Source: an uncultured virus (IMG/VR IMGVR_UViG_3300006888_000001) (lineage: Duplodnaviria; Heunggongvirae; Uroviricota; Caudoviricetes). From it: 64,000 nt of DNA. Under the pieces are notes generated by a model. That model worked only from the letters and a program-made list of their open reading frames with translations, did no database searches and was not told where the DNA came from. Numbering within the stretch: position 1 is the first letter of the stretch; every line of letters starts with the position of its first letter. Location: IMG/VR virus record IMGVR_UViG_3300006888_000001; one strand, 5' to 3'. Positions 1,873-52,089 of this stretch are shown here, piece after piece. The position numbers and the translations under genes are program-made.

Positions 1873-1977
1873 CGTGCTGCACGAGGCTGAATTGATCATG
1901 CGCAAGCAGAGCAGCCTTTCCAGTTGCGAGCGACGGATGGTGGTGGCCCGGGCGCGCGAGATCCTTGGAGGTGAACG

Positions 1978-2169
1978 GTGAAAGGCTTCTTTCTGCTGCT
2001 TGGTTTGGTGCTTGGGTTTGTGGTGTGGATGCTGGTTGCGGGACCCGGTCGTCATCGGCAGCGGTCGCGGCTGGCGGGGCTCTACTTCGGGCGCGAGGGC
2101 GAAGATTCACGCGCCAGAACCGTGGAAAGGCTGGAGAGATCAGCAAAGCCGGGAGGGCTGAAACGATGA
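1978..2169 (+). CDS. Small membrane protein
   Basis: GGAGGTG RBS; N-terminal hydrophobic helix FFLLLGLVLGFVVWMLVA. Confidence 0.55.
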   Translation: MKGFFLLLGLVLGFVVWMLVAGPGRHRQRSRLAGLYFGREGEDSRARTVERLERSAKPGGLKR

Positions 2170-2672
2170 CGTCGAAAACGTGTCATGCCTGTGGGCGCGA
2201 GTATTCTGAGATCGCCCGCATGTATTCGGAATTTGTGCGATGCCATGGTGCAAATGAGCTTTGGATGCAGCTTATCGACGCTGCTGCCGGAGTTCTGGCG
2301 GCGCGGGAACGCTTGGCTGAAACCTTGTCCTGCACTGACGAGGAGTATGTGGCCGTGCTGGCGCGGATGGAGATCATGCTCGCTATGGCCATCAGAGGAG
2401 TGGAGCGCGACGGCCCCATACGGCCCGGGCAGGATGATGCATGGCTTCATCCTGGCCTGGCCATCGCCCTGCTGATTGTCGAAGCGTCCAAGTGGGCGCG
2501 GCATGTGACCGACATCTTGTCTGTTTGGAGGGCTGCGCTCAATGCGCGCCAGGCCTTGGATCGTTTGATCCTTCCTTGGGAAGGCATGATGGCTCAAGCC
2601 AGGAGGTCTGTCGCGGTGGAATTTCGGCTGTGTCGGACGTGCCAAGTCCAGGCGGGACAACGTGAAGTGTGA
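2166..2672 (+). CDS. Hypothetical phage protein
   Basis: ATGA overlap with previous gene, GGAGG upstream; CHAC and CRTC motifs. Confidence 0.55.
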   Translation: MTSKTCHACGREYSEIARMYSEFVRCHGANELWMQLIDAAAGVLAARERLAETLSCTDEEYVAVLARMEIMLAMAIRGVERDGPIRPGQDDAWLHPGLAIALLIVEASKWARHVTDILSVWRAALNARQALDRLILPWEGMMAQARRSVAVEFRLCRTCQVQAGQREV

Positions 2673-3363
2673 GCGCTGCCAGACCGCGCTGCCTGAGGAT
2701 TCCGCTTACAATCGTAAATATTGCGATGTTTGCCGAAGGGTCGTGGACAAGGAACAGTGTGGCAAAAAGCGCGGCGTCAAGACAATTGAAGCCCGGACGT
2801 GTTCTGAGTGTCCAAAAGTATTTCACGTCATCGAGTACAGCAAAAGACTGACGTGTTCCCCGTGTTGTCAGCGTGCGCGGGAGGCACGCCTGCAGCGGGA
2901 GCGCGACTGCACCCCGATGGGCAAGGAAGAACGCGCCTGTGAGATTTGCTTGAAATCGTACGTGACGAGCAAACGGAGTAAGCGTCGAACTTGCGGCAAA
3001 AAAAACTGTCAGCGGGCGCTGCGTAAAATGGCTGATGCCCTGCGTGAGGATGAACGCCGCGCGGATTTACCGCGTGAGAATCGACAATGCCCAGTGTGCG
3101 GAAGTTGGTTTGAAACAATCGTCGGATCCAATCGGAAGACGTGCGGCAAAAAAAAGTGTGTCCGGACATGGTCTAATGCGTCCCGGCGCGTTGCGCGTGA
3201 ACTGGAGGCTAAGGTGAAGGCCTCGCGCGGGTTTGTCGATCCTGGGTACCGGGGAAAATGGGGCCTGGAGGTTGATCCCTGGGCTACTGATGCCCTGGGG
3301 GGCGAGAGTCTGTCGCCAGACGTATTGAGCTGGAACAACGCCATAATGACACCGTTTGGTTGA
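2662..3363 (+). CDS. Cys-rich repeat (putative multi-zinc-finger) protein
   Basis: Four CxxC...C units (CERC/YCDVC, CSEC/TCSPCC, CEIC/TCGKKNC, CPVC/TCGKKKC); very basic. Confidence 0.65.
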   Translation: MKCERCQTALPEDSAYNRKYCDVCRRVVDKEQCGKKRGVKTIEARTCSECPKVFHVIEYSKRLTCSPCCQRAREARLQRERDCTPMGKEERACEICLKSYVTSKRSKRRTCGKKNCQRALRKMADALREDERRADLPRENRQCPVCGSWFETIVGSNRKTCGKKKCVRTWSNASRRVARELEAKVKASRGFVDPGYRGKWGLEVDPWATDALGGESLSPDVLSWNNAIMTPFG

Positions 3364-3378
3364 AGTGAGGGCGGCCTA

Positions 3379-3702
3379 ATGGAGTCGTTTGTTGCCCGTA
3401 CAGCCGCTGTGCAGCGGTTTCGAGAGCTGTTGCGAAGCTGTCCGCTCGTAGCGATTGTGTCTGAGTCACGTTTGATGATCCGAGCGGTCCAGCTCACAGC
3501 CGACAAGCGCCGTCTGGTGCATAATAATCGTTGGGAGATGCTGCATTGGAAGGAGTTCAGCGAGGCTGTTGACCTGTTCTGGACCGATCCGGTTCAGGCT
3601 TGGCTGGCTGCGCATCCGTGCGCTGAGGTGGGCGTGCATTTTCGGAATATGGATGCGCAGGAGATCCGGGCCGGGTCTTTGCTGGTGGTGGACTCTGTAT
3701 AA
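3379..3702 (+). CDS. Hypothetical phage protein
   Basis: ORF in operon direction with GAGGG RBS. Confidence 0.5.
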   Translation: MESFVARTAAVQRFRELLRSCPLVAIVSESRLMIRAVQLTADKRRLVHNNRWEMLHWKEFSEAVDLFWTDPVQAWLAAHPCAEVGVHFRNMDAQEIRAGSLLVVDSV

Positions 3703-30604: not shown

Positions 30605-33600
30605 ATGATGAATTTTCAGATCACCGACGACATCCTTGACGCCTGGGATCAGGAGCTTGGTTTTGCGGAAGAACGGCAGGCGACCCCTGCCGTTTCGCGT
30701 TCCGTACCGCAGACAAAAGGCAGTGTGGAGCAGGCCCTGACCACGGCCGGAAAATTCGAGCTGACGCCCGAAGTGCTGGACCAGTGGGACCGGGAGCTTG
30801 GGTTTGACAAGGAGCCTGTGGATGCCGCCGCCCGCGAAGCCGTGGCGGAGCCTGCGCAGGTTGAAGGCCCGGGCGTGGTGGCGCGAGGCATAGGCAAGGC
30901 CCTGGGCAATGTCGTCGGTCTGGGCGACCTGTTGCCGGACGTGGAAGTGCGCCTTGGGCAAGACCGCCCGGCGGAGCTGGTGCCACGGTCCGACCCGCGC
31001 GGCCCGGAGTGGGAAAAGCAGGGAGCGGAGATTTCTTCCATGCTCGGACGCGGCGTTGCGCACACGGCCAAGGCCGCGTGGGAGAACGGCGATTTCGGCC
31101 AGACGCAGGAAGAATTGATTGATTCCTACAGGGCGGTCCGTGACAAGGTTGGTGCTGATCAGGAATTTCTGAAGTCTCGCGAGGACTGGGCCGAGGGACT
31201 GCCCGAGGGGATATTGTCCCTGCCGTACTCGCTTACGACCATGGGCGCGAGCCTGCTGGGCAGCCTGGCGGGCTCGCCGGGCGGCAAGACGGGTTCCGTG
31301 CTGGGCGGCATGGCCGCTTCCGGCGCCACGGCTTACCGTGCCAGCCGTCACGACTTCATGGGCAATCTGCTCCTGAAGGCAAGCCAGGAACTTGGCCGCG
31401 TGCCCACGCCCGAGGAATGGACAGCCCTGCAGGACAAGTTTGACGGCGCGGCCACCAAGTATGGCGCTTGGGAAGCTATCCCCGAAGCGGTGGGCAATGC
31501 CATGTTCATGGGCGTTGTCGGGCCGGGCTCCAAGTGGGTGGCGGACAAGCTGAGTAAGAAGTTGGGTACCGGCCTGGTCGGGCGCGTGGTCAAGGGGCCG
31601 GTCGGCCGCGTCACGGCCGGAATGGTTGGCACACAGGCCGAAGAACAGTCGATGGAAGGGCTGACGGGATGGGGCCAGGGCGGCGTAGAGGCCGAAGTAG
31701 GTCTGCGCGACAAAGCGCCAACATTGGCCGAAGCCTACAAGGAGTCATTCGCGCCCACGTTCTGGATGACCATGATCACGGGCGGTTTGGGGACCGGCGC
31801 AAGCCACGTGTATGACCGCTGGAAGCAGAGCGGGCGCATCACGGAACCGGAGGCCGATCCGACCCAGACGCAAATCCCCAGTGACCCGGCCCGCGAGCAA
31901 GCCGCCCGCGACACCCTGGACCAGGGCCGGGAAGTGGATCTGCTGGATCTTACCCCGACCGATCCGGCAACGCCGCCGCCTGCAGTGCCTTCCGCGCCTG
32001 CAGCTGCTGCAGCGTCCACAGTCACGGGCCGCGTGGACGAGCTGGCCGATACGTTGGGGCAAATGAACGATGTCCCCGTGGTGGACGAGGCAAACGAGAT
32101 CAGCCCGGCCGTGCTTGGCACGCCTGAGGGTGACGCCGCGTTCCAGGAGTCTCAGCGTGCCGCAGCCGAGGCGGCCGTTCCCGTGGGCGGCAAGTTCGTT
32201 CCGGATGGGGCGCAGCCTGTAGCGCCGGTAGCGGAACAAGCCCCGGATACCCCATTTACGCCCTCGGAGCTGCAGGGCATGATGCCCGCTCCGGAGGAGC
32301 CCATATTGGTGCCGCCCATGGAGCAGGCCGGCGCGGTGGATGCCTTGGATGCGGGCCAGGGGATGCCCTCAAATGATGTCGAAAAACAGGAAAGAGCCCC
32401 CTGGCAGATGACCTTGGGCGAGTACCTGGAAGCCAAGCCAGATGGCCCCAAGTCCCGGATGAACACGCACGAGCACCATGTGCGCGAGGCCCTGGAGCAG
32501 GGCTTGCCGGTGCCGCCCGAGGTGCTGGCGCGGTACAAGGGGCGGTACTGGATGGAGCGCCAGCCAGAGGAGCCCGTGGCAATCGAGCTGGAAGGCGGGT
32601 TTGGTGGCGGTGAAGGGGCTGCGCCTCCCGGACATGTTTCGATTTTCGATCAGGCAGTTTCGTTTGGGGAAGTGGCAGGGCAGCACAAGCAGGAGGGGAT
32701 GGATGACCGAAGACAAGGCGAAACGGGCGGAGCAGACGCTGGACAGGTTGGCCAAGGCTTTCAACAAGACGACGGCGGGCCGGTCGGCGACATTCAAGCG
32801 GGGGCTGTTCAACAGGATGACCAAGGACAAGGGGGAAGCCTTCAGGCAGGATCTTTTGTCGAGGATCAATCTCGAATAGCCGAAGCGCTGGACTATGCCG
32901 ACAACGTGACGCGGCATCTGGTCGGTGCCGGCGCGTTGACCGAGGAAGAAGCCGGGCTCATCGAGCAGGCCGAGCGTGATGAGAGCGAGGCACGCCTGGC
33001 GGATCTGGCATATGAAATGAGCATGCATGCCGAGGTGCGGGATCATGCCCTGGATATCCATGAGCGCGTGATTTCGCGCATCCGTAAATTGGGCGGGATC
33101 AATTACGACCACGCCCGGGAACAGATGGGCCGGGATGGCATTCAGTGGATGCAATCACGGTTTGGGCTGGGTTTCGTGTCCAGTGACGGGGTCATGCTGG
33201 ACGAGCTGGCGGACATGCTGAGCGCCGAAGTTCCGGAGCTGGCAATCGACCGCGAGGTCCAGAACCTCATGGACCTGCTGCGCGACCGCGTGCAGTCCAA
33301 AAAGGCCATCGAGCAGGATTACAGCCGCGCCGTGGACGGCGTGCGCATGGAGATGAGCGAGATTATCGGCCGCCTGCAGGAGCGCCAGGATTACCGCGAG
33401 GGCAAGAATGTCTTTGACCAGCGCGCCGAATCGGACACGGAGCAGGCCAACGCCCCGCCGCACGACCCGGCCCTAGACGAGTCCATGGCCGAGTTCATGG
33501 CCGAGTATGACCGCCAGCTGGCCGAGAAAGAGGCCAAGGCTCAGAAGCCAAAGACTTTGCGCGAGAAGGGCAAAGAGCGGCGAGAGAAGCGGGCGGAGCC

Positions 33601-36600
33601 GTCACCTGAAAAGCAGGCCAGGGCTACGGCCCGCGCGAACCGCAAGCCTGGTCAGACCCTCAAAGACGCCAAGGCCGAGGTGGCCGACCACGCCCAGGGG
33701 CTCGCTGACAGTCTCAAAGCCGCGGCCGATGTGTTTTCGAGGTTCGGCGGGTTGTCCGTGCGCATCGTCAAGGATGGGGAAGAGGTCAATCAAGACCTTT
33801 ACCGGGAGCTGAAACCCCACCTGACCAAGGCCCTGGAACACCTGAAGGCCATGGGTGTGGCCGGCAAGGACCTGGTGCGCGAGTTCGTGTCCAGGGCCAT
33901 GGAAATTTTCGGGGCCAATGCCGCCAAGGCGCGGCCCTATTTCGCCAAATTTGTGCGCGAGGAAATAGCGGGAGGAACTAATGTCGATCAACAGCGTGGC
34001 GGCGAGGATCTGGAACGAGATAGCAGAGCAGGGCAACCTGGCAACGGCGTGGGCCAAGAAAGCCTTCTCGATGAGCGAGGAGGAGCTGAGCCAGGAGGAG
34101 GACAGGGAATACAAGGCGCTGCTGAAACAGGGCGAGGATCACGAAGTGGCCAGCGCCTTCCTGGACGTGCGGCACCTGCTGGCGGAGAGCAAGGCGATAC
34201 GGGCATACGTGAAGAAACATCCGCAACTGAGCGCGGCCCTGCCGGAAGTGAATTCGGTGAACGAGGCGATACTGCTGGCCATGGGGGACACGGAATTGAG
34301 CCTGTCCCAGACCAAGCGGTTGCGCGAGCTGCTGCAAAGCGAGCTGAAGCAGATGAGCGCATAGCCGATCAGAAAAAGGCCCCGACTGCGCAAAAGTCCG
34401 GGGATCTGGCCAATATCGCCGAAACCCTGCCTGTTCTGTACGAGGGGCAGCATAAGGACGTGCAGTTCGCGGAGCTGCGCTTTGAAAAGGGCGCTGGCGT
34501 CATGTTCACCAACGGCACGGGCACGGGCAAGACCGGGTCCGGCCTCGGTATCGTCAAGCGCCTGGTCAATGCGGACAAGACCAACATCCTCATCGCCGTG
34601 CCGGCGGACAAGATCGCCAAGGACTGGATCGACTTTGCCGCCAAATACCTGAACCTGACCGTCACCCAGCTCAAGGACACCAAGGACGCGGGCAAGGGCG
34701 TGGTCATCACCACGCACGCCAACATGGGCATGAACGATGCCCTGGCATCGCGCCAGTGGGATCTTGTTATCATAGACGAGGCCCACAAGCTCATGAGTTC
34801 CGAGAACGGGGATGTGACCGACGCGCTGAACGCGCTGCGGGCCATCACCATGCACAAGGACGGCGCCTACAAATTGGCCCGTATGCGTCATCCGGATCTG
34901 TATGCGGCCCATGAAGAGGCGTCCGTGTCGCACAAGTGGGCCACGGACGAGCAGATAGCCAAATCCAACGCCGCGTACACGGCATGGAGAAATGCCATGC
35001 GCGCGGTGGACGACGAAGTCCGTCAGGCGCGGGAAAGGGGCATTCGCTCGCGGCTCGATGCCACGGACGGCCGGCCCGGCGTGGTGTTTCTTTCGGCCAC
35101 GCCCTTTGCCTACGTGAAGGACGTGGACTATGCCGCCGGCTATCTGTTCGACTACCCGGAGGTGAAGGGCACGGGCTATAACGCGCCCAGCGGGCAGCAA
35201 TCCTTCATGATCCAGCATTTCGGATTCCGGATGCGCACCGGCAAGATGAACAAGCCGGAGGCGGACGTGGATTCCGGGCTGATGGAACGGCAATTCAACT
35301 CCTGGCTGAAGCGGGAAAAGGTGTTGTCTTCGCGCACCCTACAGGTCGATTTCGACTATGACCGGCGGTTTGTGCTGGTGGAATCGGCCATTGGCCGCAA
35401 GATCGATGAGGGACTGGAACTGTTGCGGTCGAAAAGGTTCCGCGAGCTGGGCGACAAGGTCGGTAAGACGTTCGACCATCTGGCCCGGCGCTACCTGCTG
35501 GAAGCCATCAAGGCCAGGGAGGCGATTTCTGTCATTGAGGCGCACCTGGCGCGCGGCCGCAAGGTTGTGATTTTCCACGACTACAAACAGGGTGGAAACT
35601 GGCACAATCCTTTTGACGTGAGTGGCTACACCCTGGACGATGACGAACAGGTGCGCAGCCAGGCCCGCGCATTTCGAGATGAGTATCCGGACCTGGTCAA
35701 TCTGCCCATCAAGGGCCTGAGCAGTCCCATCGACGCCCTGACCAGGGCTTTTCCGAACCTGCTTCTGTTCAACGGCGACGTGCCCGGCAAGCAGCGCAAC
35801 GAGAACGTCAAGCTGTTCCAGGATGACGATTCCGGGCGCAATCTGATTTTGGTCCAGAGCGCGGCCGGTGAGGCGGGCATCAGCCTGCACGATACCACGG
35901 GCACGCATCAGCGCGTGCTCATCAACCTGGGCCTGCCGACCCGGCCGGTCACGGCCATGCAGCAGGAAGGCCGCATTTACCGCGTGGGCCAGGCTTCGCA
36001 CGCCATTTTCCGCTATCTGAACACGGGCACCAGCTGGGAGCGCTGGGCCTTTGCCTCGACCATTGCGGGCCGCGCCAGCACGGCCGAGAATCTGGCCATG
36101 GGCGAAGAGGCCCGGGCATTGCGGGACGGATTTATCCAGGCCTTCGAGGATTCCGACGCCTGGGAGCCCGGGCACGAGTCCGAGGGCCTGGGCGGCAAAG
36201 AGCGCGACGCGGCCGCCATGGCCGCCATTTCCGAGTGGGACCGCGCCCGGACTATGTATTTCGGCCAGCAGAAAAAAACGTCGCGCACCAAGGCGGCCGA
36301 GGGCGCGGACTATTTCGCCACGCCCGAGCCCCTGGGGCTGAAGATGGTGGAATGGGCGGGCATCAGCCCCGGCATGGACGTGCTGGAGCCCAGCGCCGGG
36401 CACGGCGCCATTGCCCGCTGGTTCCCGGATCTGGCGCGCAAGGTGGTCATCGAGCCATCCCACGAGTTGGCTTCGCGCATCGGCCTGGTATCCGACGCCA
36501 AAATCGTCACCGAGCGGTTCGAGGATCATCACGTCGTCAACAAGTATGACGCCATCGTCATGAATCCGCCTTTCGGCACGGCGGGCAAGCTGGCCATGGA

Positions 36601-39600
36601 GCACGTGGCCAAGGCCTTCACGCACCTGCGCGAGGGCGGGCGCATCGTGGCGCTCATCCCCGAAGGCCCGAGCATGGAGAAGCGGTTTGACGCCTGGTAC
36701 GAGTCCGAGGCGGCCAAGCATGCGCATTTGCGCATGAGCCTGTCTCTGCCGGCCGTGACCTTCGAGCGGGCCGGAACGAGCGTGCGCACGCGCGTGGTGG
36801 TCATCGACAAGGCTGAAAAGCCCGTGGGCCACGTGGAGCAGCGCAGTCCGTCCGAGGTGGGTGGCGAAACGATCAAGGACTTTTTCGAGAACCTGGAGCA
36901 CAGGACGGCTCCGGACCGGGTCCGCACCGAGGATGTCGTGCAGCAGGAAGCGGCGGAAAAGGCGTCCTCCGGCGAGGGCGTGTTCTTCGACGCGGCCGAA
37001 ACCAAGCATTCCAAGACCGGCGAGGCCCTGTATGTGGCCAAAAAGGCCGGGCAGGTATCCGATGCTGATTACAAGAAACTGGCGTCCATGGCCAAGGCGC
37101 ATGGCGGCTGGTGGTCGAGCTATAAGGCATCGGGGGCCATTCCGGGCTTTCAGTTCAAGGACCGCAAGGGCCGAGACGTCTTTTTGCAGGAGGCCAACGA
37201 GCTGCTGCAGGGCGTGGGTAAAGTGGCGGAAGGGCCGGCGCAGTATCAGACCAAGCCTGGGTCTGTACGCACTGCGTCCTCCTTGGATGGTGGGGTTCAT
37301 GCGGTTGACGGCGCATCCGAAACTGTTAGGGCCGAGCAAATCGGAGGTGAATATGGAAAAGAAAGAACCCTTGCCGAATCCGAGCCGGAAAACGAGCGTG
37401 AAGGTGACATATCCGGTCGACGAGGAGCGGATTCTGTTTCCGGAGCCGAGCCAGGAAGCGCTGGACGCCTTCCAGGAGTACGTTCGGTCCTGCTTAAAAC
37501 AGTCGAAAAACAATACGTCCCCGCAAAAATAAAGTCCGATCTTGACGCGGCGGTTGCCGTGGCCAGCCTAGCCGACCAGCCCCAGGAAAACATGGTTGCC
37601 CTGGTGCTGGACGCCGGCAACAAGCCCCTGGCAATTCTGCATCACTCCAAGGGGTCTACAGACTCAACTGTCGCCGAGCCCGCAATCCTGTCCGGCTCCG
37701 TGCTCGATGTACCCGGGGCCAGGTACGTCTATCTGGCGCACAATCATCCGGGCGAAAAAGCCTATCTCTCCCCCCAGGACGTAAAGCTTGCCGGTACCTA
37801 CCATGACCTGTTCGAGGGAAGCGGCGTGAAAATGCTGGGCCTGCTCGCGGTCACGTCGAACAGCTTCGCCAACGAACTGGGTGGCAATATCCCCATTCCC
37901 GCGTCCAGCGGGAAGGGTAAACGCGTTCCCGTACAGGTGCGCGTTTTCTTCGGCGTGTATGAGCCTGAGCGCGTTATTCGGCTGAACGATCCGAATGTGC
38001 TTATCAGGCATAGCGAGACAATCACCGGCGGCGCGGACTCCGGCATAGTGCTGCTCAATACCCAGAATGTCGTGGTGGGCTTTGTGCCTATGTCGCCGCA
38101 GCATATGGCTACGCTGCGCGGGAACGGGCTGGGGAATATCTTGCGGGCCATGCACCGGGCCAATGCCAATGGCGTGCTGGGCGTAATCCCCGGCATTTTC
38201 GACACGAAGGCGTGGCACAATGTTGCGGCCTTGGCGCGGGTCGCGGGGTTGCGTGCTCTTGATGTGCTGTACAGGGATCAACACGGAGATCTGCAATCGT
38301 TCCGTGGTAACGGCCAGGACTTTGGGGGCGACGTGGATGTGTTTTTCTCCCGCGCCGAAAACCCGACCGCCAAGGGCATGCCTGCGGCCGACGTGAAAAG
38401 CGTTGTGGACGCTGTGGCCGGGAATTGGGCCAAGGCTCCGGTGGTGAATGTGGTGCAGTCCGTGCGGGATCTGCCCGCGAAGATTCTGGGCGCGGTGCGC
38501 AAGGCCGGAGCCGAGGGCGACGTGCAGGCCGTTTATCATAACGGCACTATCCACATTATCGCCGACCGCATGGCCAGCGCCGATCACGTGCGCCGCACGC
38601 TGCTGCACGAGGGAACCGGGCACCACGGCTTGCGGCTGATCATGCGCAAGGCGGAACTGAACCGCGCCCTGGATCTGGCCTGGGAAAATTCCAAGGTCCG
38701 CGACGCGGCCGGTGAGATCGCCGGGGGCTACGAACTGGATCTCTCCGACCTGGACCAGCGCCGCGAGGCCGTGGAGGAGGTGCTGGCACACTGGGCGGAA
38801 ACGGGCGTTCGCGCCTGGGCGCTGGATAGGTTTGTGGCCGCCGTGCGCCGCGCCCTGCGCCGGGTGCTGCCGGGCCTCAAGATGACCGATGCTGAGGTCC
38901 TGGACCTGATTGTGCGCGCCCGTCGCGCCGTGGTCGAGGGCAAGGGTGCCAGGGCCGTGGCTGGCGGCGGGGCAAAGATGAGCCGGAACCCGGCGGATAT
39001 AGGCATGATCACTGAGGAGATCGCCACCGCCATAGGATGGCAGCCCGGCCCGATCCGGCTGGGGCCTGAAGACATGACTCATATCGCCGAGCGGCACCAA
39101 AGGGAGATCGCGCGGATGGGCTATCCGTCAGTGAGCGACTTCGTGAAGCATGTCGTCGAGAACTTCGACGCGGTGTATCAAGGGTACGGTCGTTCGGTAT
39201 TTTTGGCGGTGCGTGGTGGTAAAACGTGGAAGGCGGCGACGGTCAAGATGGAGTTTGAGCCCAAAGGAAATTTTTGGCGGGTGGTTTCTGCCAGTCCGGT
39301 ACGACCGGACTATTTTGTGAACCTTGAGGGTGTGGAAAGAAAAAAACTGCTTTGGGAAGGGGCGCAGTCCAATCATCGCCTTGCGGCGACCCCTAGCGCG
39401 GTCTCGGGCCAAAGCAGTTATGAAGGGAACATAAGCGCGACCGATGAGGATGACAATACGTACCTGTCCCGGGGGAGAGGCCGAAAAAGTATCAGTATTG
39501 ACGGAATCGAACGGCCGGCCGTAAACAGCGAGGGCCGGCCTATTCATGAAAGTACGGCTGGAATCGTCAATTTTTGGAGGTGGTTCGATGGATTTCAACG

Positions 39601-42600
39601 AGGAAGAGTTGGTGGAAAAGCTGTTGCAGGCGCATACGCAGGAGGAAATCGACGCGGTGTTCGATTTGATTCCGCTGACGGACGAAGAGGAAGAGAAGTT
39701 GGCCTCGATGACCGGGGACGACCCAGAGTATTTTTTCACGGAACGGCAGAAGCCATAGACGCCTTCGACCTGGACCATCCGAACAGAAAGGACAACGGGT
39801 GGCTGGGCCGGGGCGTGTACCTCATAAGCGACTCCCGCATCGCCGAAACGTACGCCAACCTGAAGGGCGGGTTCAAAAACCAGGCGGTGATGCCGCTCTA
39901 TGCCGCTGTTCGAAACCCCTATCACGCAAGCTTAAAGATAAAGCAGAAACTCAGAAGATTCAGCAAGACGTCTATTGAACGCTGGACGCAGGGCCTCAAA
40001 GACCAGGGCTTTGACGGCGTTGTGTTGGATTTTCCCGACGGCACCACGGAGCTGGTGGCATTCTACCCGGAGCAGGTGAAGTCCGTCACAGGGAACGCCG
40101 GAAGCTTTGACTCCGCAAACGACGACATACGTTTCAGCCGGGGCGAGAAAAAAACAAAGCTCCAGCAATCTGCGTTCAAGACCAGGGCAGATGCCGCCGA
40201 AGCGGGGATGCAAACTGGCGCAGACACCGGAGCTTTGAAAGAACCGCTTCGGGAAAGGGCACCGACCAATCATCGCCTTGCGGCGACCCCTAGCGCTGTC
40301 TCGGGCCAAAGCGGTTCTTCGGACGAATCATTAGAAACCTTCGGCGAGGGTGACAATACCCGTTTTTTCCGCGCCGCTACCCAGGTATCCCAGACCGTGG
40401 CCGGCATGGCCACGCCCATGACTCCCGCGCAGATCGCTGCCGAGCTGGAGGCGAACCGCACCTTTGCCAACAAGATCCATGAAGGCCGCGACCAGGTGAG
40501 ACACCAGATCAAGCTCGCGGCCACGGAGATGCAGCGCGCGGTGCAACGCCTGGCAGACTCCAAAAAGTGGAAGTACAACCCCCTCAAAATATTCTCCTCG
40601 GAAAAGGAGCTTAAAGATTCGTCCCGCTCCCGCCTGCTGGACGCGGCCATGCTTGTGCATCGGGAAATGCAGATCAACCCGGACAAGGTTCAGGAGTTCA
40701 AGGACTGGGCGCGCGAGCAGCTTGAAGTCAAAAAGGTCAAGGGCGAGGAGCGGCTGCGCATTCAGGATCAGCTCCGTGTTTTGGAGGCGGCCGAAAACCT
40801 GACGATTGAGCAGAAGCAGTTCGTGGACGACACCATGAACAACGCTTTCGAGACCTTGGGCGGCCAGGCCAAAAATGCGGGCGTGGTCAACACGCTGCTG
40901 GACAACTACGTGCGCCGCCTGTGGAACCGCCCGCAGGATGGCGACAAGGCCGTCTTCTCCGGCGCCGGGCATGCCTTCAAGACCTTCACCACGGCCAGCA
41001 AGGCCCGGAGCTTGGAAACCATATTTGACGGCTGGATAAAGGGTTACGATTTGCAGATCAAGGGCATCACGTCCAGTTGGGCGGCCATTGCCGGGGAGAT
41101 CGGCGAGATCGTGGCGAACAAGCAGTTCATTCAGGAAGGCCGCGCTCAGGGCGTGCTCTCTGCGCGGCGCCAAAAGGGTTATGCCGAGCTGCAGGGCAAG
41201 GGGTTTCAGGTCTGGGTGCGCAAGGCCGGGGTTAAGATCCGCATGCGCGACGTGTACGGCCTCTTGGGCACCGATGGTCAGGGCCGTAAGATGTACGTGT
41301 CCACGCCGAACAGGTACTGGGCCGTCTATACGGATAAGGCTGCGCGCCGGGCGGATACGCTGTTTGACGACGAAGCTCTGGCCCGGGCCTATGCGGAGCA
41401 GCTGCGCGAGCAAGGGGCTCCCGGCGCGTGGGTCGAGTTTCGGCAGGAAGTGGATATTTTCGAGAAGGTGCCCCTGTACGCGCCGGAAAAGGTGGCGGAC
41501 CTCATCAATAGAATGACCCGCGCCATGGACGGGGATAGCCCGTGGAAGGCGCCCTTGCCGCGTGCCATTCTGGCCTTCAACAACGCGGCCAAGGGCTGGA
41601 TTCTGATGACCAGCTTCTTTCACCATCTGGCCGGCGCCCGGTCGTGGGCTTTCGGCGTGAACCAGGGTGCCCTGGAAGCGCTGCGCAAGGGCGACGTGTC
41701 CGATGCCGTGCAGAAAATGGCCAGATCCATCAACCCGGTTTCCGCCCACAAGCGGGGCCTGGAGAAGATCCGGACCAGCAATGCCGTGTTGCGCCAGCTC
41801 ATCAAGCATGGCCTGACCCTTGGCGAGCTGGCAGACTGGTCCGAGGGAGTGGCGTCCGAGCATCGCGGCATCACGGACCGGCTGTTTACGCACCTTTCCG
41901 GACGGCTGCCTGGCGCGGAAAAGGTTGTCGCGGGCGTGCGGGCCGGGCGGTACTTCCGCGAACGGGCGGCCAACGCGCTCTTCAAACGCTATTTTGCCGG
42001 GCTCAAGGCCGAGGCTGCCGTGCTGGAATACGGGCATCAGCTCGATGCCGAGATCCGCGAAGCGAACCGGGAAGGGCGGGTGCCCAACCCGGATCTGGTG
42101 GCCGAGCGGGTGGCGCGCCTGGTCAATGACGACTTCGGCGGCCTGCATCTGGCACGCATGGGCAGGCATCCCGGCGTGCAGGCGGGGCTGCGCCTGTTGC
42201 TGCTGGCGCCGGACTGGACCGAATCGAACTGGCGCACGATCACGGGCATGGTGCCCGGGCTGAACGACGCCGTCGCGCGGATGATGCACGAGGTGCCCGC
42301 GCCTCCCGGCATGGACAAGGTGTATCGCCGTTTCTGGGCGCGGATCATCGTGGTCGGGGCGCTGCACACGCTGGCCCTGCAGGTGCTGGTGTCGGCCCTG
42401 CTTGGTGATGACGACGATCATTGGTATGACCTGTACAAGGACCAGTTCGCGGACTGGGACGCGCTGCGGCGCATGAAATGGACGGGCGTTGACGTGACGC
42501 CGATCTACAAGCGGCTCGGCGTGGACGTGCCCAAGGGTGAGCGCCGGGTCTTTTCCGTGGTCGGGCACTTCGCCGATTTCCTGCGGATCATGGATCCGGA

Positions 42601-43291
42601 GAATCTCATCAAGGGCAAGCTCTCGCCGCTGATGCGGATCGTGGGCGCTTTGGGCACCAAGACCGATTACCGCGAGCGGCCCTTCACGGGCGTGAAGGAG
42701 CTGGTCACCACGGGCCAGACCGTGAAGAGTTCGCGGCATCTGTCCAAAGAACAGTTCTTTGACGCGCTCCCCTCCATCCTGGCGGCGCAGATCCGCGACC
42801 TGCAGCCCATCCAGGTGGGCTATCTGCTCAAATATTTGCAAGGCGAGGAAGAAGGTTTGACGGCGCTTCTTGCCTCTGGAGGCGCGCACATGAGCGCAAC
42901 CCAGAAGCCCGATGTGATCGGCAAGGAGTTTGAGGAGGCGGCGAAGGAAGTGAACAGGGCCCGCCTCCGCTGGCGCGAGCTGGGCGAGCTGCGGGCGGCG
43001 TATCTGGCCCTGTACGAGAAAGATCCGGCCGCGGCCGAGGCTCTGCGCACGGAGCGCGCCGCCGACTTCAAGGAGGCCCGGACCTTCCGCCGCGACAACG
43101 AGAAGCTGCTGCGGCTGTACCCGATGTACGCGCGGGTGCGCGAGGCCCTGGGCGAGCAGGGCCGGAGCAAGCGCCTGCAGGAGGCCTATGTGCTGGACAA
43201 AAACAAACGCTCCACGAGCGTTGACACGCTTGATGAGAATATCGAAAAGCTGAAGCGTACATTTGTCGAGAAATATCGCAAGGCTGGATAG
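30605..43291 (+). CDS. Giant polyvalent protein (4228 aa): SF2 helicase, N6-adenine MTase, JAB/RadC, zincin peptidase, BECR-like nuclease, ADP-ribosyltransferase-like
   Basis: GTGTGKT (~34515), DEAH (~34775), SAT, QEGRIYR (~35965); DYFATP, LEPSAGHG, NPPF (~36565); HNHPGEKAYLSPQD (~37740); HEGTGHHG (~38605); HIAERH...WRVVSA (39080-39295); FHGT...GRGVYL...GFDG...EQVKS (39735-40085). Confidence 0.9.
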   Translation: MMNFQITDDILDAWDQELGFAEERQATPAVSRSVPQTKGSVEQALTTAGKFELTPEVLDQWDRELGFDKEPVDAAAREAVAEPAQVEGPGVVARGIGKALGNVVGLGDLLPDVEVRLGQDRPAELVPRSDPRGPEWEKQGAEISSMLGRGVAHTAKAAWENGDFGQTQEELIDSYRAVRDKVGADQEFLKSREDWAEGLPEGILSLPYSLTTMGASLLGSLAGSPGGKTGSVLGGMAASGATAYRASRHDFMGNLLLKASQELGRVPTPEEWTALQDKFDGAATKYGAWEAIPEAVGNAMFMGVVGPGSKWVADKLSKKLGTGLVGRVVKGPVGRVTAGMVGTQAEEQSMEGLTGWGQGGVEAEVGLRDKAPTLAEAYKESFAPTFWMTMITGGLGTGASHVYDRWKQSGRITEPEADPTQTQIPSDPAREQAARDTLDQGREVDLLDLTPTDPATPPPAVPSAPAAAAASTVTGRVDELADTLGQMNDVPVVDEANEISPAVLGTPEGDAAFQESQRAAAEAAVPVGGKFVPDGAQPVAPVAEQAPDTPFTPSELQGMMPAPEEPILVPPMEQAGAVDALDAGQGMPSNDVEKQERAPWQMTLGEYLEAKPDGPKSRMNTHEHHVREALEQGLPVPPEVLARYKGRYWMERQPEEPVAIELEGGFGGGEGAAPPGHVSIFDQAVSFGEVAGQHKQEGMDDRRQGETGGADAGQVGQGFQQDDGGPVGDIQAGAVQQDDQGQGGSLQAGSFVEDQSRIAEALDYADNVTRHLVGAGALTEEEAGLIEQAERDESEARLADLAYEMSMHAEVRDHALDIHERVISRIRKLGGINYDHAREQMGRDGIQWMQSRFGLGFVSSDGVMLDELADMLSAEVPELAIDREVQNLMDLLRDRVQSKKAIEQDYSRAVDGVRMEMSEIIGRLQERQDYREGKNVFDQRAESDTEQANAPPHDPALDESMAEFMAEYDRQLAEKEAKAQKPKTLREKGKERREKRAEPSPEKQARATARANRKPGQTLKDAKAEVADHAQGLADSLKAAADVFSRFGGLSVRIVKDGEEVNQDLYRELKPHLTKALEHLKAMGVAGKDLVREFVSRAMEIFGANAAKARPYFAKFVREEIAGGTNVDQQRGGEDLERDSRAGQPGNGVGQESLLDERGGAEPGGGQGIQGAAETGRGSRSGQRLPGRAAPAGGEQGDTGIREETSATERGPAGSEFGERGDTAGHGGHGIEPVPDQAVARAAAKRAEADERIADQKKAPTAQKSGDLANIAETLPVLYEGQHKDVQFAELRFEKGAGVMFTNGTGTGKTGSGLGIVKRLVNADKTNILIAVPADKIAKDWIDFAAKYLNLTVTQLKDTKDAGKGVVITTHANMGMNDALASRQWDLVIIDEAHKLMSSENGDVTDALNALRAITMHKDGAYKLARMRHPDLYAAHEEASVSHKWATDEQIAKSNAAYTAWRNAMRAVDDEVRQARERGIRSRLDATDGRPGVVFLSATPFAYVKDVDYAAGYLFDYPEVKGTGYNAPSGQQSFMIQHFGFRMRTGKMNKPEADVDSGLMERQFNSWLKREKVLSSRTLQVDFDYDRRFVLVESAIGRKIDEGLELLRSKRFRELGDKVGKTFDHLARRYLLEAIKAREAISVIEAHLARGRKVVIFHDYKQGGNWHNPFDVSGYTLDDDEQVRSQARAFRDEYPDLVNLPIKGLSSPIDALTRAFPNLLLFNGDVPGKQRNENVKLFQDDDSGRNLILVQSAAGEAGISLHDTTGTHQRVLINLGLPTRPVTAMQQEGRIYRVGQASHAIFRYLNTGTSWERWAFASTIAGRASTAENLAMGEEARALRDGFIQAFEDSDAWEPGHESEGLGGKERDAAAMAAISEWDRARTMYFGQQKKTSRTKAAEGADYFATPEPLGLKMVEWAGISPGMDVLEPSAGHGAIARWFPDLARKVVIEPSHELASRIGLVSDAKIVTERFEDHHVVNKYDAIVMNPPFGTAGKLAMEHVAKAFTHLREGGRIVALIPEGPSMEKRFDAWYESEAAKHAHLRMSLSLPAVTFERAGTSVRTRVVVIDKAEKPVGHVEQRSPSEVGGETIKDFFENLEHRTAPDRVRTEDVVQQEAAEKASSGEGVFFDAAETKHSKTGEALYVAKKAGQVSDADYKKLASMAKAHGGWWSSYKASGAIPGFQFKDRKGRDVFLQEANELLQGVGKVAEGPAQYQTKPGSVRTASSLDGGVHAVDGASETVRAEQIGGEYGKERTLAESEPENEREGDISGRRGADSVSGAEPGSAGRLPGVRSVLLKTVEKQYVPAKIKSDLDAAVAVASLADQPQENMVALVLDAGNKPLAILHHSKGSTDSTVAEPAILSGSVLDVPGARYVYLAHNHPGEKAYLSPQDVKLAGTYHDLFEGSGVKMLGLLAVTSNSFANELGGNIPIPASSGKGKRVPVQVRVFFGVYEPERVIRLNDPNVLIRHSETITGGADSGIVLLNTQNVVVGFVPMSPQHMATLRGNGLGNILRAMHRANANGVLGVIPGIFDTKAWHNVAALARVAGLRALDVLYRDQHGDLQSFRGNGQDFGGDVDVFFSRAENPTAKGMPAADVKSVVDAVAGNWAKAPVVNVVQSVRDLPAKILGAVRKAGAEGDVQAVYHNGTIHIIADRMASADHVRRTLLHEGTGHHGLRLIMRKAELNRALDLAWENSKVRDAAGEIAGGYELDLSDLDQRREAVEEVLAHWAETGVRAWALDRFVAAVRRALRRVLPGLKMTDAEVLDLIVRARRAVVEGKGARAVAGGGAKMSRNPADIGMITEEIATAIGWQPGPIRLGPEDMTHIAERHQREIARMGYPSVSDFVKHVVENFDAVYQGYGRSVFLAVRGGKTWKAATVKMEFEPKGNFWRVVSASPVRPDYFVNLEGVERKKLLWEGAQSNHRLAATPSAVSGQSSYEGNISATDEDDNTYLSRGRGRKSISIDGIERPAVNSEGRPIHESTAGIVNFWRWFDGFQRGRVGGKAVAGAYAGGNRRGVRFDSADGRRGREVGLDDRGRPRVFFHGTAEAIDAFDLDHPNRKDNGWLGRGVYLISDSRIAETYANLKGGFKNQAVMPLYAAVRNPYHASLKIKQKLRRFSKTSIERWTQGLKDQGFDGVVLDFPDGTTELVAFYPEQVKSVTGNAGSFDSANDDIRFSRGEKKTKLQQSAFKTRADAAEAGMQTGADTGALKEPLRERAPTNHRLAATPSAVSGQSGSSDESLETFGEGDNTRFFRAATQVSQTVAGMATPMTPAQIAAELEANRTFANKIHEGRDQVRHQIKLAATEMQRAVQRLADSKKWKYNPLKIFSSEKELKDSSRSRLLDAAMLVHREMQINPDKVQEFKDWAREQLEVKKVKGEERLRIQDQLRVLEAAENLTIEQKQFVDDTMNNAFETLGGQAKNAGVVNTLLDNYVRRLWNRPQDGDKAVFSGAGHAFKTFTTASKARSLETIFDGWIKGYDLQIKGITSSWAAIAGEIGEIVANKQFIQEGRAQGVLSARRQKGYAELQGKGFQVWVRKAGVKIRMRDVYGLLGTDGQGRKMYVSTPNRYWAVYTDKAARRADTLFDDEALARAYAEQLREQGAPGAWVEFRQEVDIFEKVPLYAPEKVADLINRMTRAMDGDSPWKAPLPRAILAFNNAAKGWILMTSFFHHLAGARSWAFGVNQGALEALRKGDVSDAVQKMARSINPVSAHKRGLEKIRTSNAVLRQLIKHGLTLGELADWSEGVASEHRGITDRLFTHLSGRLPGAEKVVAGVRAGRYFRERAANALFKRYFAGLKAEAAVLEYGHQLDAEIREANREGRVPNPDLVAERVARLVNDDFGGLHLARMGRHPGVQAGLRLLLLAPDWTESNWRTITGMVPGLNDAVARMMHEVPAPPGMDKVYRRFWARIIVVGALHTLALQVLVSALLGDDDDHWYDLYKDQFADWDALRRMKWTGVDVTPIYKRLGVDVPKGERRVFSVVGHFADFLRIMDPENLIKGKLSPLMRIVGALGTKTDYRERPFTGVKELVTTGQTVKSSRHLSKEQFFDALPSILAAQIRDLQPIQVGYLLKYLQGEEEGLTALLASGGAHMSATQKPDVIGKEFEEAAKEVNRARLRWRELGELRAAYLALYEKDPAAAEALRTERAADFKEARTFRRDNEKLLRLYPMYARVREALGEQGRSKRLQEAYVLDKNKRSTSVDTLDENIEKLKRTFVEKYRKAG
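32703..32879 (+). CDS. Nested +1-frame small ORF 1 (58 aa, basic) inside the giant gene
   Basis: AGGAGG 6 nt before ATG; MTEDKAKRAEQTLDRLAKAFNK...; the giant frame here is a G/Q/D linker. Confidence 0.6.
   Translation: MTEDKAKRAEQTLDRLAKAFNKTTAGRSATFKRGLFNRMTKDKGEAFRQDLLSRINLE
33981..34364 (+). CDS. Nested +1-frame ORF 2 (127 aa, helical) inside the giant gene, just before the helicase domain
   Basis: GGAGG 5 nt before ATG; G/C third-position bias switches to this frame; protein-like amphipathic sequence. Confidence 0.75.
   Translation: MSINSVAARIWNEIAEQGNLATAWAKKAFSMSEEELSQEEDREYKALLKQGEDHEVASAFLDVRHLLAESKAIRAYVKKHPQLSAALPEVNSVNEAILLAMGDTELSLSQTKRLRELLQSELKQMSA
37353..37532 (+). CDS. Nested +1-frame small ORF 3 (59 aa), just before the JAB/RadC domain
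   Basis: GGAGGTGA SD before ATG; MEKKEPLPNPSRKTSVKVTYPVDEERILFPEPSQEALDAFQEYVRS... Confidence 0.65.
   Translation: MEKKEPLPNPSRKTSVKVTYPVDEERILFPEPSQEALDAFQEYVRSCLKQSKNNTSPQK
39340..39421 (-). ncRNA. Putative antisense structured small RNA, copy 1
   Basis: Minus strand: TTGTCA-17 bp-TATGTT promoter, 11-bp terminal stem AACTGCTTTGG/CCAAAGCAGTT, TCGCC-GCAA-GGCGA GNRA hairpin, ends in a T7 tract. Confidence 0.6.
39428..39456 (-). promoter_or_regulatory. Putative sigma70 antisense promoter
   Basis: -35 TTGTCA (39456..39451), 17-bp spacer, -10 TATGTT (39433..39428). Confidence 0.55.
39588..39758 (+). CDS. Nested +1-frame small ORF 4 (56 aa, very acidic), overlapping the start of the ART domain
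   Basis: GGAGGT SD; MDFNEEELVEKLLQAHTQEEIDAVFDLIPLTDEEEEKLASM...; 18 D/E vs 4 K/R. Confidence 0.7.
   Translation: MDFNEEELVEKLLQAHTQEEIDAVFDLIPLTDEEEEKLASMTGDDPEYFFTERQKP
40236..40321 (-). ncRNA. Putative antisense structured small RNA, copy 2
   Basis: 40242..40316 matches 39345..39419 at 67/75 with a compensatory stem change; TTGTCA retained at 40356..40351. Confidence 0.5.
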
Positions 43292-50055: not shown

Positions 50056-52089
50056 ATGAAAAACAATGTTGATCAGGAGTTTAGCGAATTCGTGCTTTTC
50101 TCTGAGGAAGAGATCAAAGCGCTAACTGCGCGAAGCTTTGAACGTGAGGTCAGAGGCAAGTCAGCTGTTTTTGTCAATTGCCTTGTCCGCAACAAGGACG
50201 TTCAGCTAAAACCCGAGGAACGCACCCGGCAACTTTGGCTGGCCCGACTTATCGACCAGTATAAGTACCCGGCATCGCGCATTCAGGTTGAATACCCCAT
50301 CACTTTTGGACGGGACAGTTCCAAGCGCGCCGATATCGTCGTCTTCGACGCCGACCGCCCGACAGTTCCTTACATCATCATTGAGGTGAAGCAGAGTAAG
50401 TTGCGAGATGGCAAGGAGCAACTGCGCTCCTACACACACGCGACGGGTGCGCCTCTGGCGGTGTGGAGCAACGGCATTCTCGACGAGGTCTGGCATCGCA
50501 AAAATCCGAACTACTTTGTCCCCATTCACCACCTGCCCCGAGCGAATCAGACGATCGAGGATATCGTCGATCAGCCGTGGACCATTCAGACCCTGATAGA
50601 CAAGGAGAATGAGCGGGAATGCGAGGGCTCAAAGGCACGTTCCCTGCGCGACTTGATCGAGGACATGGAAAACGAGGTTCTGGCCAACGCTGGTGTCGAT
50701 GTCTTTGAGGAAGTATTCAAACTGATCTTTACCAAGCTCTATGACGAGATGGCCACACATCGCGGCCAATATCCGTGCTTGCGTTTTCGAAACACCAACA
50801 CCGCCGCGCAACTAAAACGCGCCATTCAGGACTTGTTCGACGAAGCAAAGAATAAATGGCCCGGCGTATTCCTTGAAACCGAGCGCATACGCCTGTCGCC
50901 CGATCATCTGCAAGTCTGCGTCGGGTCTTTGGAAGAATGGAAGCTGTTCAACTCCAACCTCGACGTTATCGACGACGCTTTCGAATATCTCGTCAACAAG
51001 TCATCGAAGGGTGAAAAAGGCCAGTACTTTACCCCTCGCTGGGTGATCGACATGTGCGTAAAAATGCTCAATCCACAAGAGCATGAAACGGTGATAGACA
51101 CTGCGTGCGGTTCTGCGGGCTTTACGGTGCACTCTATGTTCCACGTCTGGCGAAAAATCATCGCGGACTTGGGACTACAGGAAAGCCACCTATTCACAAT
51201 GGAGCAGAAGCCACCACGTTGCGAAGACTATGTGCGCGACAAGGTGTTCGCCATCGACTTCGATGAAAAATCCGTCCGCGTCTCCCGCTGCCTCAACCTC
51301 ATCGCGGGCGACGGTGAAACCAACGTGCTTCATCTCAACACCCTCGACTGGACCAAGTGGGACGAGACGGTAAAGCAGGATGAATGGGGCGAGACCTACA
51401 GCGCCGGATGGCAGCGACTTCGCAGGCTCAGGGTTAGCACCAAACAGGCCGACTACCGGCAATTCAAGTTCGACGTGGTGATGGCCAACCCGCCTTTCGC
51501 GGGTGATATCAAACAATCCGAAATGCTGTCATCCTATGATCTGGCCCATAAGAAGGACGGCAAGCTGGAACGCGCCGTAGGTCGTGATCTACTGTTCATC
51601 GAACGCAATCTGGACTTCCTAAAACCTGGCGGCCGTATGGCTGTGGTGCTTCCACAGGGGCGATTCAACAACTCGTCCGACCGACGGGTGCGCGAGTTTA
51701 TCATGGAGCGTTGCCGCATCCTGGCCGTGGTGGGTTTGCACCCTAATAGCTTCAAACCGCACACCGGGACTAAGACAAGCGTGCTGTTTGTGCAGAAGTG
51801 GAACGACGATCCCTCTGCCGGACCACTCTGCCCTAAGGTGGGCGACTATAACATCTTCTTCGCCACGCAGCAGGTGGAAAGCATCAACAATTCGGGCGAG
51901 AAGGTCTATGTGCGCCGCGAGGACGGCGGCATGCTAATGCGTGATACGCATGGGCACTTCATCGTCGCTCATGACCTCTACAATCACGAGGGTCTGACAG
52001 GGGATGGCATAGCCGAAGCCTTTCAGGAGTTCGCCGCACAGGAGCAATTCAGTTTTTTTCGCTTCGCCCCTTCGACAGTGACCGCTTAG
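50056..52089 (+). CDS. Fused restriction endonuclease (HsdR N-terminal type) and N6-adenine methyltransferase (type IIB/IIG-like)
   Basis: RADIVV...IEVK...QLRSY nuclease motif; GQYFTPR, DTACGSAGF, NPPF. Confidence 0.88.
   Translation: MKNNVDQEFSEFVLFSEEEIKALTARSFEREVRGKSAVFVNCLVRNKDVQLKPEERTRQLWLARLIDQYKYPASRIQVEYPITFGRDSSKRADIVVFDADRPTVPYIIIEVKQSKLRDGKEQLRSYTHATGAPLAVWSNGILDEVWHRKNPNYFVPIHHLPRANQTIEDIVDQPWTIQTLIDKENERECEGSKARSLRDLIEDMENEVLANAGVDVFEEVFKLIFTKLYDEMATHRGQYPCLRFRNTNTAAQLKRAIQDLFDEAKNKWPGVFLETERIRLSPDHLQVCVGSLEEWKLFNSNLDVIDDAFEYLVNKSSKGEKGQYFTPRWVIDMCVKMLNPQEHETVIDTACGSAGFTVHSMFHVWRKIIADLGLQESHLFTMEQKPPRCEDYVRDKVFAIDFDEKSVRVSRCLNLIAGDGETNVLHLNTLDWTKWDETVKQDEWGETYSAGWQRLRRLRVSTKQADYRQFKFDVVMANPPFAGDIKQSEMLSSYDLAHKKDGKLERAVGRDLLFIERNLDFLKPGGRMAVVLPQGRFNNSSDRRVREFIMERCRILAVVGLHPNSFKPHTGTKTSVLFVQKWNDDPSAGPLCPKVGDYNIFFATQQVESINNSGEKVYVRREDGGMLMRDTHGHFIVAHDLYNHEGLTGDGIAEAFQEFAAQEQFSFFRFAPSTVTA

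Follow-up and report, generated by a model that had tools for sequence, protein, structure and literature searches.

A promoter- and terminator-flanked hairpin in the linker codons of phage polyvalent proteins: a candidate family of antisense small-RNA genes

Cis-antisense RNAs that overlap the 3' end of the gene opposite to them are known from phages and prophages, as in the cases of OOP RNA from lambda and of RatA and SR4, type I antitoxins encoded by prophages of Bacillus subtilis. In a stretch of 64,000 nucleotides from an uncultured virus of the Caudoviricetes (IMG/VR record IMGVR_UViG_3300006888_000001; the whole stretch is called the window here), the gene for a giant polyvalent protein contains two copies of a repeat, and we favour, with some reserve, the reading that each copy is a compact minus-strand gene for an antisense small RNA of about 85 nucleotides, with action in cis on the effector gene as the default. 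In kind, it would be a cis-encoded antisense small RNA. As with OOP, RatA and SR4, the predicted RNA falls into the range of about 70–100 nucleotides, would be made from its own sigma-70 promoter on the opposite strand of a phage gene, would end at an intrinsic terminator and overlaps the 3' part of a (presumably toxic) coding unit, for which the loci L209 and L218 described below may be compared. Unlike these RNAs, the element is embedded in an open reading frame (ORF) that runs on past it, with in-frame translation of the opposite strand; it consists of one long rod-like hairpin with a closed tetraloop that is conserved nearly base for base across phyla; and the presumed toxic unit to which it is tied is a domain with a putative BECR fold, part of a giant injected effector and not a small membrane peptide.

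The two copies were recovered in a repeat search as a direct repeat of 79 nucleotides (39341–39419 and 40238–40316; 89% identity, spacing 897 nucleotides), and the 75-nucleotide repeat reported in a preliminary description of the window (39345–39419 versus 40242–40316) indeed agrees in 67 of 75 bases. Because 897 nucleotides are exactly 299 codons, the copies share a common reading frame, and both are in frame within the ORF of the polyvalent protein (30605–43291, plus strand, 4228 amino acids), where they encode the peptides KKLLWEGAQSNHRLAATPSAVSGQSS and KEPLRERAPTNHRLAATPSAVSGQSG. Folding of the minus strand gives a long hairpin for copy 1 (-32.9 kcal/mol) as well as for copy 2 (-42.3 kcal/mol), and the covariance model described below scores them at 97.2 and 88.6 bits, respectively; neither blastn nor this model detected a third copy in the window. 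Copy 1 looks like a fully equipped unit. Its -35-like hexamer TTGTCA (39451–39456, minus strand, encoding D-N on the plus strand) is separated by a spacer of 17 nucleotides from the -10-like hexamer TATGTT (39428–39433), a pair found by a consensus promoter scan at 39456–39428, and the RNA would start at about position 39421, at the base of the stem. The rod-like hairpin (39345–39419, minus strand), supported by folding, covariance model and covariation, has an outer stem of 11 base pairs, conserved internal loops and the GNRA cap TCGCC-GCAA-GGCGA, and it is followed by a terminator-like T7 tract (39340–39346, minus strand; A7 on the plus strand, within the codons AGA AAA AAA). The RNA predicted from this arrangement of promoter (39456–39428), hairpin (39419–39345) and U-tract (39346–39340) would have about 82 nucleotides. 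In copy 2, which seems the weaker gene of the two and may be a decaying duplicate, both the -10 box and the tail are of lower quality: its promoter-like sequence (40327–40356, minus strand) can be read as TTGTCA-18-AATGAT, which is the version given by the scan at 40356–40327, or as TTGTCA-17-TAATGA, and its hairpin (40239–40319, minus strand), in which the outer stem reaches 15 base pairs including one G-U pair (a C-A mismatch on the plus strand), runs into the tail TTCTTTC (40232–40238, minus strand), a poor U-tract. The GCAA cap, the promoter-like hexamers and T7 tract of copy 1, and the weaker -10 box and TTCTTTC tail of copy 2 had been pointed out in the preliminary description, as had the compensatory difference between the copies (ACTGC/GCAGT versus ACCGC/GCGGT), and they are present in the sequence. 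As a separate observation, the giant protein has, close to the ends of its domains, four occurrences of a short motif (D/N)x(R/Y/V)(F/L)(S/F)R, namely DVFFSR, NTYLSR, DIRFSR and NTRFFR at 38345, 39464, 40133 and 40364, and two of the four occurrences stand directly after the RNA units and overlap the -35 boxes.

The evidence from the window taken alone is modest. One compensatory double change among eight random substitutions has a probability of about 0.036. Compared with dinucleotide shuffles, the folds have z values of -2.70 (copy 1) and -3.67 (copy 2), whereas recoding the peptide synonymously gives folds of similar energy (z from -0.45 to -0.91); a perfect inverted repeat of 11 base pairs is rare among such recodings, being found in 16 of 3000 and 3 of 3000. 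The consensus promoter scan gave 4 sites in 2 kb versus 0.6 expected from shuffled sequence. Decisive support comes from relatives of the element elsewhere and not from the window alone.

Relatives were collected by way of the protein domain that directly precedes copy 1 (38993–39322, plus strand, 110 residues), which is similar to the PBECR3 family. A phmmer search among 1.84 billion representative proteins yielded 440 relatives of this domain at an expectation value (E) of 0.001 or less, and in many of the best 150 of these 440 the peptide of the repeat, xLWE[RG]AQ...PSAVSGQS, is the usual C-terminal tail of the domain. In these tails PLW goes together with GQSG, and LLW with GQSS, GQSN or GQSK, which matches the prediction from base pairing (CCG/CGG and CTG/CAG), and the middle of the peptide varies freely; because of this covariation and of the free middle part, the comparison was moved from peptide to DNA. 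Diverged tails, known from proteins only, include PLWEGAPSLHQ and PLWDRAGTS. By the peptide pattern, 20 loci were obtained from species genomes, including those of Desulfovibrio, other Desulfovibrionaceae, Hydrogenedentota, Methylococcales, Xanthobacter, Oryzomonas, Geobacteraceae and Verrucomicrobia. Four loci came from IMG/VR, where pattern scans gave mostly chance matches, real ones being only the stretches of the L001 contig among 18 matches, 4 of 22, and 5 of at least 120. Another 38 loci came from metagenomes by means of a 22-nucleotide pattern covering only the 5' conserved block, and since the pattern covers that block, the metagenome set was left out of the test for its conservation. 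After exclusion of duplicates, of the decayed L202 and L203, of the partial L185 and of a chance match at position 17213 of the window, 51 elements were kept, and these 51 non-redundant relatives derive from contigs of phages, of metagenomes and of bacteria belonging to several phyla. They follow a common plan, consisting of a sigma-70-type promoter, a rod-like hairpin of about 80–95 nucleotides and a T-run directly after the stem. Also, the covariance model finds one or two copies in each of 11 out of 151 species genomes of Desulfovibrionaceae. As judged by this comparison, the unit belongs to a family that extends over phages, prophages and bacterial contigs of several phyla. No blastn match to a 102-nucleotide element was obtained in GenBank phages or PLSDB plasmids at E ≤ 0.001, and Rfam 15 gave no match at E ≤ 1 for positions 38500–41200 of the window; for six related loci, the sole Rfam row was an unrelated model of a long non-coding RNA (E 0.6) located elsewhere in L218. 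A full-text literature search by the motifs of the element together with PBECR3 found no description of it.

Comparison of codons indicates that the constraint acts on the nucleic acid. In 12 loci possessing both domain and element (the window and 11 loci found by peptide pattern), identical residues in the conserved blocks of the element share the same codon in 360 of 426 comparisons (84.5%), whereas in the adjacent domain, the protein sequence of which is only 30% identical, they do so in 785 of 2074 (37.8%); the codon for Arg is AGG in 10 of the 10 loci that have Arg. In a MAFFT alignment of 46 minus-strand sequences, RNAalifold predicts 23 pairs, of which 15 show compensatory changes. When a rod model of 29 pairs was applied to the same 46 sequences, 92.1% of 1334 cells were paired versus 81.2% in shuffled alignments, none of 500 shuffles reaching as high a value, and changes on both sides of a pair were counted in 151 cells versus 54.6 in shuffles, although such counts of cells overstate the number of independent events because the sequences are related to one another. 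Sliding the partner columns against each other lowers pairing to 39–52%. The covariation signal is carried by the basal stem and the apical hairpin, and the middle helix GCGY/GCGC never breaks in this alignment. A covariance model was built from the 46 sequences, and a second alignment was assembled from 17 matches (16 distinct), namely 11 loci found only by the model and 6 that were searched again, including the diverged L047, L056 and L206; in this second alignment, which was fitted to the model and leans towards structure, 87.1% of the cells are paired versus 73.5% in shuffles, all 12 pairs of the outer stem change on both sides and one change from G-C to A-U is found in the middle GCGC helix. 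The preliminary description had named a lack of structural covariation among homologues as an observation that would speak against an RNA, and the opposite was found, with strong covariation in two alignments.

The element is also strand-specific and equipped with putative signals for transcription. Among the pairs of the model, 195 cells hold G-U on the minus strand, whereas only 17 hold A-C or C-A, which would be G-U on the plus strand, and of the apical hairpins, 39 of which are distinct, 15 are closed by tetraloops of the GNRA or UNCG type when read on the minus strand versus 1 of 39 on the plus strand. A minus-strand promoter score, composed of a TTGACA-like hexamer, a spacer of 16–18 nucleotides and a TATAAT-like hexamer, attains at least 9 of 12.5 in 31 of 51 elements, while among 940 control windows taken within these loci 31 do so (3.3%). 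The distance from the end of the -10 box to the base of the stem is usually 7–13 nucleotides, and TATAnT recurs in diverged copies. At the other end, a T-run of at least four follows the stem in 33 of 46 elements versus 4.3% of control 11-mers. Read as peptide on the plus strand, the A-run encodes KK, the -10 box ENI and the -35 box VK or DN. Taken together, comparison shows a structured, strand-specific element, flanked by promoter- and terminator-like features, that is under selection, and the relatives support the arrangement of minus-strand promoter, structured RNA and U-tract which had been proposed for the window, where it is duplicated behind a nuclease-like and an ADP-ribosyltransferase (ART) domain.

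The genomic contexts show that the tie of the element to the BECR-like domain is frequent, the domain being found directly upstream in 24 of 41 and in 7 of 11 elements, and that it is not obligatory. Other copies follow an ART domain (copy 2 of the window and its counterpart in L001) or an LPD3 domain (L186), or are located in non-coding DNA. In any frame of the available flanks, some of which are short, a PBECR3-like domain is lacking for about 18 of the 51 elements; among these, L186 and the second copies of the window type lie in long ORFs behind other domains, and the rest lie outside a long open frame in the frame of the element, although many loci are from fragmentary assemblies, so that a position outside an ORF may reflect a decayed or mis-assembled gene. 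Copies without a spanning open frame on the opposite strand make up 2 of the 11 found by the model. The copy of L062 occupies the space that separates two convergent genes of a chromosome (AAA_14/DUF4143 and AMP-binding), and other copies are found near a small terminase-like gene, near DarP and near a transketolase. In five genomes with stand-alone copies, which score about 76–100 bits and number 1–3 per genome, a search with our own domain alignment detected the PBECR3-like domain in none (positive control 4 of 4), four of the five genomes being incomplete metagenome bins. Homology between dispersed stand-alone copies is limited to 69–96 nucleotides, which correspond to the hairpin. Copies embedded in ORFs all use the same frame, and in the solo PBECR3-like genes L209 and L218 the element is located at the very 3' end of the ORF.

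On the reading that we favour, host RNA polymerase would transcribe an RNA of about 85 nucleotides from the unit, this RNA would be perfectly complementary to the messenger RNA (mRNA) of the effector, and by acting in cis it would lower or cut expression of the gene bearing the ribonuclease (RNase) and ART domains. Its function would probably be to control or neutralise toxic parts of the polyvalent protein. Action in the manner of 3'-overlapping antisense RNAs is possible because the RNA is complementary to the mRNA and overlaps the 3' end of the ORF in solo-domain genes. The DNA is almost frozen, since the same bases also encode the linker peptide KKxLWERAQS..PSAVSGQSG..ENI..VK. Several points count against this reading. 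A closed loop of four nucleotides is a poor start for antisense 'kissing', and near-identity across phyla exceeds what complementarity in cis needs. No good promoter-like site is present in the 60 nucleotides scanned for 20 of 51 elements, the T-run is missing in 13 of 46, and GNRA or UNCG loops occur in no more than 15 of 39 hairpins. In the middle helix GAGA/UUUC, no pair has changed on both sides, and at one pair 13 of 46 cells are unpaired. To these must be added the relatedness of the aligned sequences and the lean of the second alignment, as well as the fact that G-T wobble is tolerated in hairpins of single-stranded DNA too.

Closed tetraloops and internal loops that are conserved in sequence across phyla favour a protein partner, and the neighbouring RNase-fold domain is the obvious candidate. 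The RNA might thus act in trans by binding the PBECR3-like domain, as an antidote, a decoy, or a cofactor or cargo loaded together with the effector, a tentative alternative to which we assign a low probability, though one worth weighing. The preliminary description had proposed such a role, with an RNA antitoxin or decoy for the BECR-like module that would complement nested protein genes. Antisense pairing alone would need no sequence conservation in the internal loops, the closed GNRA and UUCG caps would suit a stable protein-binding hairpin, the element stands most often directly after this domain, and the domain itself is predicted to have a fold like BECR and RelE. RNA binding was predicted for some PBECR domains in the passages concerned of Iyer et al. 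(2017, PMC5512222). Against a dedicated partner of this kind stand the copies located after ART (window, L001) or LPD3 (L186) and the stand-alone copies, together with the lack of the domain in all five genomes mentioned above. A broader proposal, of a cross-phylum dual-coding family in which phage and prophage effector genes carry in their linker codons an antisense RNA dedicated to the neighbouring BECR-fold RNase domain, whether as antidote, decoy or cofactor, seems to us doubtful at present.

The dispersed copies could suggest, instead, a small palindromic DNA element without RNA function, tolerated in frame within linkers and acting as single-stranded DNA or being selfish in the way of REP/RAYT, IS200-type or Rickettsia palindromic elements. 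Such an element would fit the sharp end of homology at the base of the stem, the unrelated sites of insertion (between chromosomal genes; near terminase-like gene, DarP and transketolase; three copies in L232), the tandem duplicated tails (P0063, L195, L198) and the wobble pairs tolerated in DNA hairpins. However, the many dispersed copies of selfish palindromes were not found, the window having two copies, the five genomes 1–3 and the 11 of 151 Desulfovibrionaceae genomes 1 or 2; the neighbourhoods examined contained neither a transposase nor an HUH enzyme; and promoter-like boxes at a fixed distance outside the homology, the T-run and RNA-type tetraloops on one strand only would remain unexplained, so that this explanation appears quite unlikely. 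In L232, a contig from a Desulfovibrio bin (G004:C139, positions 850–3420), the three copies are about 1.2 kb apart and follow a TerD / PRTase-TRSP / HAD / StiP-PELOTA gene cluster, with which they share the strand, and the DNA between the copies has no recognisable ORFs. The same contig contains a second, unrelated repeat of 75 nucleotides (1657–1731 and 3110–3184, 80% identity), in which an A-run is followed by a long hairpin (AGAAATGCTCGCTG...CAGCGAGCATTTCT) and which may represent another hairpin-RNA family. The tail of the domain (...YRGQSGEQLWERAQ...) is present in tandem duplicate in P0063 and P0165, and in L195 and L198 upstream of the element; therefore, the unit has been duplicated more than once, independently of the pair in the window.

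A transcription stop or insulator, which would protect the effector gene from antisense or convergent transcription and of which the RNA would be a by-product, could account for the T-run found directly after the basal stem in 33 of 46 elements and for the location of the element in L062 immediately downstream of a minus-strand gene, as expected for a terminator. Yet conservation of sequence across phyla is not usual for terminators, which have no need of conserved internal loops and do not normally have a promoter of their own 7–13 nucleotides upstream, and this possibility is therefore considered very unlikely.

A repeated peptide alone, serving as linker, docking or protease-cleavage motif above an incidental hairpin, is highly improbable and contradicted by several results: although its motif is a common domain tail in many of the best 150 relatives, ORF-embedded copies share a single frame and the stability of the fold is matched by synonymous recodings of the peptide from the window, it does not explain the conservation at synonymous sites, the compensatory stem changes even where residues change (L/S versus P/G in the window), the covariation of PLW...GQSG and LLW...GQSS with base pairing, an apical hairpin that stays paired while its peptide is unconstrained, and the copies outside of ORFs. 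Some further candidates were rejected. A programmed -1 frameshift at A AAA AAA followed by a hairpin is at odds with a spacer of 0–1 nucleotide, with the absence of the A-run in several relatives and with wobble pairs favouring the minus strand; an integron attC site is at odds with the ends GTTATGA and GTTCTTC (consensus GTTRRRY) and with the absence of an integrase from the contexts examined; and REP sequences and retron non-coding RNAs, as commonly described, do not fit.

Among other known systems, RNA-OUT of IS10, CopA and FinP resemble the element in being single, stable, imperfect hairpins antisense to a gene of the mobile element itself, with a structure that is kept by compensatory changes. 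Unlike the element, they pair with the 5' leader or start region by an open loop, whereas the element lies thousands of bases inside an ORF and has closed loops of four nucleotides. ToxI of the ToxIN system would be a parallel if the RNA is an antidote, as it is encoded beside a nuclease coding sequence and neutralises an endoribonuclease in conflicts between phage and host. However, ToxI consists of tandem short repeats on the strand of the toxin and upstream of it, which are processed by the toxin, while the element forms single units of about 85 nucleotides on the opposite strand and downstream of the BECR-fold domain. Rickettsia palindromic elements are likewise palindromes translated in frame, adding a segment to the peptide, with hairpins kept by compensatory changes; they differ from the element in its low copy number, its occurrence mostly in one context after one domain family, and the promoter and terminator features on one of its strands.

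The gene in which both copies are embedded was characterised by means of the ORF list, its translation and Pfam. Pfam domains of the polyvalent protein include a SNF2/ResIII helicase, a methyltransferase, RadC-JAB and ART-PolyVal, and it also possesses a zincin-like HExxH region in addition to the PBECR3-like domain. Neighbouring genes match families of terminase large subunit, head-tail adaptor, tail fibre and internal virion protein, and therefore the gene lies in a phage virion module. Polyvalent proteins of phages and conjugative elements, with PBECR, ART-PolyVal, RadC, helicase-methylase and zincin-like peptidase domains, have been described (Iyer et al., 2017; PMC5512222), and the gene shares the architecture and the virion gene context reported in the parts of that paper bearing on them, whereas its passages on hairpins, linkers and the nucleotide level say nothing of an antisense RNA, or of any other element at the nucleotide level, where domains join. 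The ART-PolyVal domain between the two copies (39707–40108, plus strand, residues 3035–3168) matches PF18760 with an E of 3.9e-24 and 86.4 bits as compared to a cut-off of 31.2. For the PBECR3-like domain of the window itself, Pfam gave no match at E ≤ 0.1; among 15 aligned relatives, 5 match PBECR3 (PF18812; best E 4.7e-07), and P0032 carries PF18812. An AlphaFold model of the domain (predicted local distance difference test 88.4) has as its top structural match the CdiA-CT 8ey4_A (Z 7.4, root mean square deviation 2.5, 76 residues aligned), followed by 7m5f_C (Z 7.2), BrnT (7.1), the colicin D tRNase (7.1) and RelE (5.0–5.2), all below a Z of 8 and thus in the middling range, and a Foldseek search against the PDB with the same model gave no match at E ≤ 0.001. 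Relatives and structural matches are in keeping with the earlier placement of copy 1 directly after a BECR-fold-like domain, and for the fold of this domain the modelled structure is suggestive.

A relative from IMG/VR (L001), 88% identical, carries both copies. The two sequences are nearly identical over the stretch that begins with copy 1 and reaches about 39800, and clearly more diverged on the flanks, for which a recent exchange or the overlap of two constraints (RNA gene and nested ORF) could be responsible. The nested ORF referred to has 56 codons (MDFNEEELVEKLLQ...; 39588–39758, plus strand) in frame +1 of the giant ORF, with GGAGGT 6 nucleotides upstream of its start, and the main frame encodes at this place a Gly/Arg-rich insert of about 35–40 residues where the ART domain starts, flanked by NFWRWF and VFFHGT. 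In L001 the nested frame is likewise open, and because 5 of 6 base differences change a residue in either frame, L001 does not tell which frame is selected. A third promoter-like site on the minus strand, TTGAAA-17-AAAAAT (39598–39570), runs antisense across the start of the nested ORF. Elsewhere in the window, a large gene (50056–52086, plus strand) matches phage methyltransferase, helicase and DarB-like antirestriction families, and may therefore be a second anti-defence effector of the phage.

If the RNA is made, the element would represent an undescribed and widely spread RNA family, for which no Rfam match and no literature description were found, and its place in protein-coding DNA puts it outside the reach of searches for intergenic RNA genes. 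One stretch of DNA would then serve as codon string, promoter, structured RNA and terminator, and this would account for a 'linker' that is conserved nearly base for base across phyla in otherwise fast-evolving phage effectors. Should the RNA be an antidote, it would provide RNA-based self-protection (or loading) for injected polyvalent toxins, would be the first known RNA partner of a nuclease of the RelE/colicin type, and would be a case of an RNA gene freezing the protein sequence that is written over it. Cultured carriers of the element exist, among them Oryzomonas japonica Red96 (L055), whose copy is embedded in an ORF and has the promoter-like sequence TTGACA-17-GAGAAT (or TTGACA-20-AATATT), and Xanthobacter autotrophicus AM5 (L057), whose copy stands alone. 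If true, the favoured reading would give a clue to how phages and prophages control, or protect themselves from, giant proteins with RNase and ADP-ribosyltransferase domains.

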